From assembly GCF_041886205.1 (NCBI RefSeq), contig NZ_CP169029.1: a stretch of 64,000 bases of DNA. One strand, written 5' to 3'. The notes under the pieces were generated by a model, which was not told the DNA's origin, made no database searches, and saw only the letters and a program-made list of their open reading frames with translations. Shown here one piece after another: positions 6,000-13,791 of this stretch (the first letter of the stretch is position 1; each line of letters opens with the position of its first letter). Position numbers and translations under genes: made by a program. The stretch comes from Escherichia coli. GTDB lineage: Bacteria > Pseudomonadota > Gammaproteobacteria > Enterobacterales > Enterobacteriaceae.

Positions 6000-6629
6000 A
6001 TGATTCGGGTAGTGCTGGTGGATGACCATGTGGTGGTGCGCTCTGGCTTCGCACAATTACTCTCTCTGGAAGACGATCTGGAGGTCATTGGTCAGTACAG
6101 TAGTGCCGCGCAGGCATGGTCGGCATTAATCCGTGATGACGTCAATGTTGCCGTCATTGATATTGCCATGCCGGACGAAAACGGCCTCAGTTTGCTTAAG
6201 CGCCTGCGTGCACAAAAACCGCAATTTCGCGCCATTATTCTTAGCATTTATGACGCGCCAACCTTTGTGCAAAGCGCGCTGGATGCCGGTGCCAGCGGGT
6301 ATTTAACCAAACGCTGTGGGCCGGAAGAGTTAGTGCAGGCGGTGCGCTCGGTCGGGCTGGGCGGGCATTATCTCTGTGCCGATGCGATTCGGGCTTTACG
6401 CGGCGGCGGGCAACCCGCCCAGGCGCTGGAAATTCTCACCCCGCGAGAACGTGAAGTGTTTGATTTACTTGTCAAAGGAGACAGCGTTAAAGAGATCGCC
6501 TTTAAACTCGAACTCAGTCATAAAACGGTACATGTGCATCGCGCCAATGTGCTGGGAAAACTGAACTGCCATAGCACCATTGAACTGGTGCATTTTGCGC
6601 TCGACCACCATCTGCTGGCGGGGCATTAA
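6000..6629 (+). CDS. UhpA-like response regulator (NarL/FixJ family, LuxR-type HTH)
   Basis: Receiver domain start MIRVVLVDDHVVVRSGF; C-terminal HTH ...KEIAFKLELSHKTVHVHRANVLGKL; diverged paralog of K-12 UhpA rather than the orthologue. Confidence 0.8.
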   Translation: MIRVVLVDDHVVVRSGFAQLLSLEDDLEVIGQYSSAAQAWSALIRDDVNVAVIDIAMPDENGLSLLKRLRAQKPQFRAIILSIYDAPTFVQSALDAGASGYLTKRCGPEELVQAVRSVGLGGHYLCADAIRALRGGGQPAQALEILTPREREVFDLLVKGDSVKEIAFKLELSHKTVHVHRANVLGKLNCHSTIELVHFALDHHLLAGH

Positions 6630-8170
6630 TGTCGCGCAATCTTCGTCATTGGGTGATTTCGTTGTTTATTGTGCTGGCCTGGGGAACCGGCTGGCTGATG
6701 CTGTGGACGCTCAGCTTTTATCTGACCAATAACGGTCAACAGGCGGCGCTGTTTCTGCCGCACGGGGTTTATCTCGCCCTTCTTATTTTGCTTGCACGCC
6801 GCTACTGGCCTGCGCTGGTGCTCCCCCCTTTGCTGATGATGTTCTGGCTCCATAGCGAACAGCTATTGAACGGTTATATCATGCTGGCAACGCCGGTTAT
6901 TAGCCTGTTTCCTGCCATCCTTGCGCAAAACGTCTGGCACCGTTTTCCACTTTACTGGCAGCGTCTGACGTTACTGTTAGCCACGGTCACAACAGCTTCA
7001 TTGCTGAATACCGCCCTGCTCTCCCCTTTTATGTCAGGCCCAATAATGCTGCCGGGTTTGACCTCATTTACCGGCGGCGTATTACTGACGCCGTTTGTCT
7101 ATCTCATCTTTGAGTTTCTGCGCCAGCAGCATCGCTACCAGCTCCTGGGACTCGATACGCATAATCCCCCCTTGCGTACCTCTTTAATCATCTGGTGTAG
7201 CCTGTTTTTTATTATTGGTATCGGCACTCAGATAGTGCTGTCACCTGAAATTGAACGTCTGCTGTTGATCGTAGTTTTTCTACCCAACGTGGTGATGGCA
7301 TGGAAATTTGGCTGGCAAGGTGGCGTACTCTCCGGGCTTTTGGGCAGCATGATGATCACCATCGCCCGCCAGATTGGCGTGGGCTTTAGTAACCTGGTGG
7401 AGCTGGAGATTTTCCTCGCGACCCAGGCCTTGCTGGGAATTGGCCTGGGCATTGCCATCAGTCGCCAGCAACATCTGGCGCTAAACCTGCACCATTACCG
7501 ACAACGGCTGGAGGCCGAGCTGGCAGCGCGGCGAGCATTGGCGGAAAAGCTGATCCACACCGAGGAGGACACGCGAAAAAACCTGGCGCGAGAGCTGCAC
7601 GACGAAATCGGTCAGAACATCACCGCCATTCAGATCCAGTCGCAACTGGTGAAGCGGGCGCGTGATCCGGCGCAAATTCAATCCGCAGCCAGCCAAATCA
7701 ATGAGCTCGCCCGCCGCATTCATCTCTCCACCCGCCAGTTGCTGCGCCAGTTGCGGCCTCCCGCGCTTGATGAACTGACATTTCGCGAAGCGTTGTTGCA
7801 TCTGATTAATGAATTTGCCTTTAGTGAACGCGGCATTCATTGCCAGTTTGCCTATCAACTGAACTCCACACCAGAAAACGAAACGGTGCGCTTTACCTTG
7901 TATCGGTTATTGCAGGAGTTGCTCAATAACATCTGTAAACACGCCGAAGCCAGCGAAGTGACGATTATCCTGCGCCAGCAGAGAGAGGTATTGCATCTGG
8001 AAGTCAGCGACAACGGTGTGGGGATCGCCAGCGGGAAAATGGCCGGATTTGGCATTCAGGGGATGCGTGAGCGCGTCAGCGCCCTGGGCGGCGACTTAAC
8101 GCTCGAAAAACAGCACGGCACGCGGGTAATTGTTAACTTGCCCACATTTTTGCAACAAATCGCCGGATAA
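6629..8170 (+). CDS. UhpB-like membrane sensor histidine kinase
   Basis: Multi-TM N-terminal half, H-box ...ARELHDEIGQ..., HATPase region; start overlaps upstream stop (TAATG). Confidence 0.75.
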   Translation: MSRNLRHWVISLFIVLAWGTGWLMLWTLSFYLTNNGQQAALFLPHGVYLALLILLARRYWPALVLPPLLMMFWLHSEQLLNGYIMLATPVISLFPAILAQNVWHRFPLYWQRLTLLLATVTTASLLNTALLSPFMSGPIMLPGLTSFTGGVLLTPFVYLIFEFLRQQHRYQLLGLDTHNPPLRTSLIIWCSLFFIIGIGTQIVLSPEIERLLLIVVFLPNVVMAWKFGWQGGVLSGLLGSMMITIARQIGVGFSNLVELEIFLATQALLGIGLGIAISRQQHLALNLHHYRQRLEAELAARRALAEKLIHTEEDTRKNLARELHDEIGQNITAIQIQSQLVKRARDPAQIQSAASQINELARRIHLSTRQLLRQLRPPALDELTFREALLHLINEFAFSERGIHCQFAYQLNSTPENETVRFTLYRLLQELLNNICKHAEASEVTIILRQQREVLHLEVSDNGVGIASGKMAGFGIQGMRERVSALGGDLTLEKQHGTRVIVNLPTFLQQIAG

Positions 8171-12733: not shown

Positions 12734-13791
12734 TGGAGCGCACTATGAGTCAGAAAAATTTTGTGGAACTGCGCAACGTCACTAAACGATTCGGCAGTAA
12801 TACGGTTATCGACAATATCAATCTCACCATCCCACAAGGGCAAATGGTGACGCTGCTCGGTCCTTCCGGATGCGGCAAAACCACCATTCTGCGTCTGGTT
12901 GCCGGGCTGGAAAAACCGGGCGAAGGGCAAATTTTTATAGACGGCGAAGATGTCACGCATCGTTCCATTCAGCAACGCGATATCTGCATGGTGTTTCAGT
13001 CATACGCTCTGTTCCCACATATGTCGCTGGGTGAAAACGTTGGCTACGGGCTGAAGATGCTTGGCGTGTCGCGTAGTGAAGTGAAGCAACGGGTGAAAAA
13101 GGCGCTGGCAATGGTGGATCTGGAAGGCTTCGAGGACCGCTATGTCGATCAGATTTCCGGTGGTCAGCAACAGCGTGTGGCACTGGCCCGCGCGTTGATC
13201 CTCAAGCCTAAAGTGCTGCTGTTTGATGAGCCGTTAAGTAACCTCGATGCCAACCTGCGTCGCAGCATGCGCGATAAAATCCGCGAGCTGCAAAAGCAAT
13301 TTAACATCACTTCGCTCTATGTGACTCACGATCAAAGTGAAGCTTTCGCGGTGTCCGACACTGTGCTGGTGATGAACAAAGGTCACATCATGCAAATTGG
13401 CTCGCCGCAGGATCTCTATCGTCAGCCCGCCTCCCGCTTTATGGCAAGTTTTATGGGCGACGCCAACCTGTTCCCAGCGAACTTTCGCGAAGAGTATGTC
13501 GATATCTACGGTTATCGCCTGCCGCGCGCGGCGCATTTCCCGGCGCAAGGTAGCGGCACCGTCGGCGTTCGCCCGGAAGCCATCACCTTAAGCAATCACG
13601 GCGAAGAGAGTCAGCGTTGTGTTATACGCCATGTCGCCTACATGGGGCCGCAGTACGAAGTGACCGTAGAGTGGCATGGTCAGGAGATTTTATTACAAGT
13701 CAACGCCACCCGTTTACAGCCCGATATTGGTGAGCACTATTACCTTGAAATCCATCCTTACGGGATGTTTGTTTTAGCGGATGCAGCATAA
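12733..13791 (+). CDS. afuC: ABC transporter ATP-binding protein AfuC/FbpC type
   Basis: Walker [10 protein letters not shown], signature [15 protein letters not shown], Walker B LLFDEP; C-terminal TOBE-like extension. Confidence 0.8.

Follow-up and report, generated by a model that had tools for sequence, protein, structure and literature searches.

A 64,000-nucleotide (nt) stretch of the Escherichia coli contig NZ_CP169029.1 (assembly GCF_041886205.1), referred to here as the window and numbered from its first nucleotide, carries six co-directional plus-strand genes at 6000-13791. They encode a response regulator, a histidine kinase, a major facilitator superfamily (MFS) protein and the AfuA, AfuB and AfuC components of an ATP-binding cassette (ABC) importer. 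Together they make up a copy of the O-island 20 (OI-20) cassette already described in enterohaemorrhagic E. coli (EHEC) O157:H7, fusR-fusK-z0461-afuABC, and the locus itself is not new. What the present analysis adds is computational evidence in favour of FusR controlling afuABC directly, in a uhpT-like manner. In the reading favoured here, to which a probability of roughly 0.6 is assigned, Uhp-like sensing of hexose phosphate would activate z0461-afuABC through a uhpT-type promoter. Gut-signal sensing in EHEC by FusK and FusR (jointly FusKR) is a textbook case.

The genes and the extent of the cassette are as follows.

6000-6629, plus strand: fusR, a NarL/UhpA-type response regulator of 209 aa (Pfam Response_reg and GerE)
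6629-8170, plus strand: fusK, a MASE1 histidine kinase of the UhpB type, 513 aa (Pfam MASE1, HisKA_3 and HATPase)
8255-9559, plus strand: z0461, a UhpC-type MFS protein of the organophosphate family (its open reading frame, ORF, opens at 8243)
9556-10587, plus strand: afuA, a predicted periplasmic sugar-phosphate-binding protein (PDB matches and triad residues)
10655-12733, plus strand: afuB, a fused two-domain ABC permease of 692 aa (two Pfam BPD_transp_1 stretches)
12745-13791, plus strand: afuC, an ABC ATPase with a TOBE domain (start picked by its Shine-Dalgarno sequence; ORF from 12733)
5906-13816, plus strand: extent of the cassette held in common with OI-20 of EHEC EDL933 (96.7% nucleotide identity)

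A preliminary description of the window had already recognised these six genes and their overlapping stops and starts. All six are confirmed on the plus strand, and overlaps are present at the fusR/fusK junction (TAATG at 6627-6631) and the z0461/afuA junction (ATGA at 9556-9559, 4 nt). It had also read them as a Uhp-like module coupled to AfuABC, which is correct, but it missed the published names and assigned function (FusR, FusK, Z0461 and OI-20). Identity to the EDL933 proteins is 99.5% for FusR (Z0463), 97.9% for FusK (Z0462) and 99.3% for the MFS protein (Z0461), together with 97.7%, 98.7% and 98.9% for AfuA, AfuB and AfuC (Z0460-Z0458). The EDL933 copy sits between tauA and frmR, and the locus there has been named O-island 20 (PMC4546632).

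Layout of the predicted z0461-afuABC promoter

Four elements can be recognised at the end of fusK and in the spacer between fusK and z0461. Their positions relative to transcription assume a start ~7 nt after the -10 hexamer, predicted at about 8241-8243.

8131-8146, plus strand: CRP-like site TGTTAACTTGCCCACA in the 3' end of fusK, centred at about -103.5 from the predicted transcription start
8171-8187, plus strand: predicted 17-bp regulator (UhpA/FusR-type) element CCAGGAAAAAGTCTTAG, centred at about -63 and beginning 1 nt after the kinase stop
8203-8210, plus strand: invariant block TCTCATCC over the -35 region, about -39 to -32
8230-8235, plus strand: -10 hexamer TATAGT of the MFS-afuABC unit, recognised by its TAnnnT spacing

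The depth of conservation of these elements was assessed with an AfuA alignment scan of one genome per species, which returned 281 relatives. The best 80 loci were retained and 76 of them, from ~30 enterobacterial genera, had enough upstream DNA. The kinase-MFS spacer measures 70-110 nt and is strongly footprinted across the loci, with the 17-bp element conserved in all spacers and fully palindromic in Buttiauxella, Erwinia and Rahnella (for example CCAGGAATAATTCCTGG in the first two). The TCTCAT[C/G] block starts 32 nt after the start of the element in 71 of the 76 loci, and in every one (76/76) the TAnnnT hexamer starts exactly 27 nt beyond the TCTCA block. Next come a Shine-Dalgarno sequence, which is conserved, and the start codon. 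Upstream, the CRP-like motif TGTTA-N6-CCACA occurs in 75/76 loci and at the same offset in 74/76. The site falls within coding sequence, and its third-codon positions are 0.89-0.99 conserved, as against 0.42-0.83 for equally conserved codons upstream, which indicates selection on the DNA sequence itself.

A known counterpart of this arrangement is the uhpT promoter of E. coli K-12. A search of the 8.4-kb K-12 uhp locus for the window's 17-bp element, with up to three mismatches allowed, gave one match where 0.03 would be expected by chance. This match, CCTGGAAAATTTCTTAG (L004, 4619-4635, opposite strand), lies within the uhpC-uhpT spacer, that is, in the uhpT promoter. Moreover, TCTCAGGC in K-12 uhpT is as far from the -10 hexamer there as the TCTCA block is in the window, and the spacings compare as follows.

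Element start to TCTCA block: K-12 uhpT 33 nt, window 32 nt
TCTCA block to -10: K-12 uhpT 27 nt (TCTCAGG to TACAAT), window 27 nt
CRP-type site centre to -10: K-12 uhpT 91.5 nt (site cGTGA-N6-TCACc), window 91.5 nt

Expressed relative to transcription, the CRP-type site is centred near -103.5 in both promoters and the 17-bp element near -64 in K-12 uhpT and near -63 in the window, and the entire layout of CRP-like site, element, block and -10 hexamer agrees to within 1 nt. The CAP site and the "-64 element" of UhpA reportedly lie at these positions of uhpT (Merkel 1995; Olekhnovich 1999; both cited in PMC5352689). The same layout, in the form element-32-TCTGAT-27-TAnnnT, precedes the MFS-afuABC unit in a distant locus (L090) and also, in another (L091), a divergently transcribed gene for an organophosphate-family MFS transporter.

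Conservation of the six-gene unit

The order regulator-kinase-MFS-afuA-afuB-afuC is kept in 76/76 scorable loci, and the lowest identities to the window in these loci are 72% (regulator), 55% (kinase), 67% (MFS protein) and 84% (AfuA). The closest syntenic orthologues are those of Citrobacter (AfuA 96% and kinase 88% identical). The same six-gene order is also found in Pectobacterium, in one further taxon and in a distant lineage with a kinase 38% and an AfuA 73% identical to those of the window; other relatives of the kinase occur in classical uhpABC-type loci. In all loci except those of Yersinia, the distance from the MFS stop codon to the afuA start is between -4 and +60 nt, and for this reason the MFS gene and afuABC are taken to form one transcription unit. 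The cassette comprises two units, fusR-fusK and z0461-afuABC. In one locus, that of Leclercia adecarboxylata NCTC13032 (L028), the kinase, afuB and afuC gave only partial tblastn matches, and the cassette there may be decaying.

Relationship of FusR, FusK and Z0461 to UhpABC

NCBIfam models rank UhpA, UhpB and UhpC top for the window's regulator, kinase and MFS protein, respectively. The UhpA model scores 193 bits on FusR, below its cutoff of 258, and the UhpB model scores 378 bits on FusK, below its cutoff of 408; the UhpC subfamily model NF008661, at 588.5 bits on the MFS protein against a cutoff of 564, is the only one of the three Uhp models to pass. Identity to K-12 UhpA, UhpB and UhpC is 48% for FusR, 34% for FusK and 53% for the MFS protein, which is 30% identical to UhpT. 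Because both models fall below cutoff and the identities are this low, FusR and FusK are regarded as paralogues of UhpA and UhpB rather than orthologues, and the view in the preliminary description of a module homologous to but diverged from UhpABC is thereby upheld.

Kinase and regulator motifs are intact, with the H, N and G boxes retained in FusK. The recognition helix of FusR, LSHKTVHVHRAN, shares 11 of 12 residues with that of UhpA, LSPKTVHVHRAN, the two having in common the pattern LS[H/P]KTVHVHRAN. Alignments of the MFS protein reach E = 1.5e-72 against GlpT and ~1e-52 against the human glucose-6-phosphate (G6P) transporter G6PT. Its residues R39, K75 and R259, the counterparts of GlpT R45, K80 and R269, show no variation among 80 orthologues and are also found in K-12 UhpC and UhpT.

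Taken as a system, the cassette resembles K-12 UhpABC-UhpT in its three protein types and their domain architectures (Response_reg plus GerE; MASE1 plus HisKA_3 plus HATPase; organophosphate-family MFS), in the A-B-C gene order with an A/B overlap, in the near-identical regulator recognition helix, and in a seemingly homologous target promoter with its CRP site, 17-bp element, TCTCA block and -10 hexamer. It differs in that the window cassette has no UhpT-like gene, its output being an ATP-driven ABC importer instead of the UhpT antiporter; in that the regulated promoter would precede the UhpC-like gene rather than follow it; and in that the published signal of FusK is fucose, not G6P.

Substrate of AfuABC

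AfuABC has been described as a hexose- and heptose-phosphate importer required for colonisation by Citrobacter rodentium, with binding and transport of G6P, fructose-6-phosphate (F6P) and sedoheptulose-7-phosphate (S7P) shown for the Actinobacillus pleuropneumoniae and C. rodentium systems by crystallography, isothermal titration calorimetry and complementation (PMC4546632). This work on the proteins of those two species bears out the earlier suggestion, made for the window, that AfuABC-type importers take phosphorylated sugars. The window's AfuA matches solved AfuA structures closely (8x1a, E = 6e-171, 78% identity; 4r72, E = 8e-167, 76% identity), and its importer resembles the A. pleuropneumoniae/C. 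rodentium AfuABC (PDB 4R72-4R75) in its triad, fused permease and TOBE-containing ATPase. AfuA has a 24-residue signal peptide, and its H229, D230 and E253 in precursor numbering correspond to the sugar-binding triad H205/D206/E229, a motif defined in PMC4546632.

Database names point elsewhere, to a ferric-iron importer of the FbpABC/SfuABC type or a pyridoxal-5-phosphate (P5P) importer of the P5PA type. AfuC passes the NCBIfam model "ferric ABC transporter ATP-binding protein" with 695 bits against a cutoff of 496, the names given by PDB depositors mention Fe3+, and P5PA (6wce) is a paralogue of AfuA at E = 7.5e-109. The binding protein itself contradicts both names. The di-tyrosine stretch NNYYWY of the ferric-binding protein HitA aligns to GFLHDY in AfuA, which places Leu, His and Asp at the iron ligands, and P5PA has Ala where AfuA has D230 and E253; iron and P5P uptake are rejected on these grounds. 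With the sugar triad intact in the window's AfuA, and with AfuA of A. pleuropneumoniae and C. rodentium shown to bind sugar phosphates (PMC4546632), either identity seems very improbable. The conclusion that the window's AfuA is a sugar-phosphate protein and not an iron protein is therefore supported, and the preliminary description, which had preferred sugar phosphate to iron, agrees with the retained triad and the missing di-tyrosine ligands.

Proposed mechanism and competing explanations

Under the favoured reading, UhpC-like Z0461 and UhpB-like FusK would report external hexose phosphate, FusK would phosphorylate FusR, and phosphorylated FusR would bind the 17-bp element and, together with CRP, switch on z0461-afuABC. 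AfuABC would then import G6P, F6P or S7P at the expense of ATP, and induction of the sensor gene z0461 alongside the transporter would provide positive feedback. At the level of sequence comparison, such Uhp-type control of afuABC appears well supported, and the coupling of a Uhp-like module to afuABC that had been proposed for the window is strengthened by synteny across ~30 genera, the 4-nt MFS/afuA overlap and the uhpT-type promoter. The reported up-regulation of afuB along with Z0461-Z0463 in bovine gut contents agrees with co-regulation.

Several points weigh against this reading. The transcription start, the binding of FusR and the inducer are all predictions. In an nhmmer search of 133 kb with a profile of 77 spacers, the best match fell in the uhpT promoter with E = 1.3, which is not significant alone, so that it counts only in combination with the independent mismatch search. 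Within the MFS protein, the equivalent of GlpT H165 (residue 156 when the ORF is counted from 8243) is Ile in 80/80 orthologues, whereas K-12 UhpC and UhpT have His at this position and human G6PT has Met; the handling of ligand by the MFS protein may therefore differ. Xenorhabdus bovienii carries afuABC without the module (L088, 7582-12294). Finally, L-fucose has been reported as the signal of FusK, and FusR has been reported to repress, not activate, z0461 (Pacheco 2012, as summarised in PMC11644481 and PMC6199705).

These last reports form the core of the published model, in which FusK senses L-fucose directly, its autophosphorylation responding to the sugar, phosphorylated FusR represses ler, z0461 and the fuc genes, Z0461 aids fucose import, afuABC is merely co-located or co-repressed, and sugar phosphates have no sensing role. 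That model has behind it the experimental claims of Pacheco et al. 2012 (as summarised in PMC11644481, PMC6199705 and PMC4810492), the description of z0461 as a fucose-import aid repressed by FusKR (PMC6199705), and the 98-99.5% identity of the window proteins to those studied. It sits uneasily with a Z0461 that is an organophosphate-family MFS protein, keeps its phosphate-binding Arg and Lys invariant and matched no fucose permease model in the NCBIfam scan. Nor does it readily explain the six-gene unit in ~30 genera, a spread far beyond what a pathogen-specific virulence role would need, or a regulator site at about -63 with a CRP site at about -103.5, which is the geometry of UhpA-activated uhpT and not that of a repressor. 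The published model on its own is consequently judged rather unlikely. It is conceivable that the two sets of observations are compatible: fucose may act on FusK as an additional input or as one confined to some lineages, and could coexist with a sugar-phosphate input.

Alternatively, the adjacency could lack regulatory meaning altogether, afuABC being expressed only through read-through or under a different regulator, and the spacer element serving, for example, as an RNA hairpin after fusK. The palindromes do fold as RNA hairpins in Buttiauxella (z = -3.1) and Rahnella (z = -4.0), and no experiment tying FusR to afuABC was found in the literature searched; PMC4546632 remarks on the proximity of AfuABC and FusKR without suggesting regulation of afuABC by the module, and no paper in the searched literature linked FusKR to afuABC regulation. 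Yet in the window's own lineage the hairpin does not stand out from shuffled sequence (z = -0.9) although its positions are conserved, and a hairpin role was rejected as unlikely there. Moreover, the same asymmetric element is present in the uhpT promoter, the spacing to the -10 hexamer is fixed in 76/76 loci, and no terminator-like T-run follows the element. Adjacency without regulation thus appears quite improbable.

Returning to control by a Uhp-like system, a broader proposal can be put forward tentatively, at somewhat less than even odds. FusKR would not be primarily a fucose sensor but the UhpA/UhpB-type half of a three-component system for sensing hexose phosphate, in which Z0461 is the UhpC-type co-sensor and the z0461-afuABC promoter the ancient target, with cross-regulation of uhpT being possible. 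Since the promoters and the recognition helices are nearly alike, FusR and UhpA could cross-regulate both importers wherever both occur.

Other features of the cassette

The MFS gene most likely starts at ATG 8255 rather than at 8243, judging from a conserved GGAG at 8245-8248 upstream of 8255 and from ATG 8243 being ACG in most genera. Likewise, GGAG at 12735 precedes the ATG at 12745, which is most likely the afuC start; if so, afuB and afuC lie 11 nt apart and do not overlap. The mechanical ORF at 9229-10587 over-extends afuA, whose true start is 9556. Three further elements can be listed.

5942-5969, plus strand: predicted sigma-70-like promoter of fusR-fusK, TTGCCA-16-CATGAT (consensus scan; hexamers conserved across genera)
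10608-10634, plus strand: GC-rich hairpin in the afuA-afuB spacer, read from sequence
13808-13830, plus strand: hairpin 17 nt past the afuC stop codon, with an 8-bp stem and no T-run, read from sequence

The fusR-fusK promoter region lacks the 17-bp element. Upstream of its -35 hexamer, a TGTTAC...CAT motif at 5907-5925 is conserved across genera and may be bound by another regulator. A scan for consensus terminators gave none that was convincing in the fusK-MFS spacer, and no Rfam family was matched within 4000-16000. No second 17-bp element was seen in the long MFS-afuA spacer of Yersinia or upstream of the stand-alone afuA of Xenorhabdus. Finally, the published FusR site at ler was compared by eye with the 17-bp element, and the resemblance is too weak to claim.

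Genomic context, mobility and distribution

The left flank of the cassette (1-5780) consists of opgE'-ompX-rhtA-dps-glnH, a tyrosine integrase at 4513-5715 and a strong hairpin terminator at 5752-5780, so that the island begins directly 3' of glnH, where glnP normally comes next. A tRNA scan of the whole window found no tRNA gene, and the island is accordingly not located at a tRNA. The glnH-integrase junction is common to 18 complete E. coli genomes, including that of the uropathogenic E. coli (UPEC) strain 2/0, which has pap genes further along its island.

Relative to OI-20 of EHEC O157:H7, the window cassette is equal in its six genes, their order and all overlaps, and unlike it in following a tyrosine integrase after glnH instead of lying between tauA and frmR; from this difference in site the cassette appears to be portable. 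Indeed, E. coli genomes carry the 7.9-kb cassette at no fewer than three positions in the chromosome, namely tauA/frmR (EDL933), a tRNA-Phe island (JML285) and the position after glnH seen in the window. A search for repeats flanking the cassette gave only short chance matches. K-12 and many other strains keep a remnant only, consisting of the 3' end of afuB and afuC at 85% DNA identity, and the afuC of this remnant is annotated as fbpC, the ATPase of a "ferric" transporter.

The remainder of the window (13800-64000) is a mosaic island with IS66 and ISL3 elements, a YadA-type adhesin and a katG-like gene. It also carries a cdiB/cdiA/cdiI contact-dependent inhibition locus, with a 3259-aa ORF at 48361-58140 (minus strand) and a ShlB-type gene at 58153-59919 (minus strand).

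Significance

Reviews have placed FusKR in O157:H7 alone and have named Enterococcus faecalis as a possible donor. Its distribution extends beyond O157:H7: of 5426 complete E. coli genomes, 518, of varied origin, contain the cassette, and the module occurs in ~30 enterobacterial genera. Its acquisition from Enterococcus need not be invoked. If the promoter reading is true, a "fucose sensor" would control a sugar-phosphate importer by means of a promoter that resembles that of uhpT and is assisted by CRP, and would do so in many enterobacteria beyond O157:H7. The phenotypes of FusKR would then be interpreted differently, and the stories of FusKR and AfuABC, so far told separately, would be joined.

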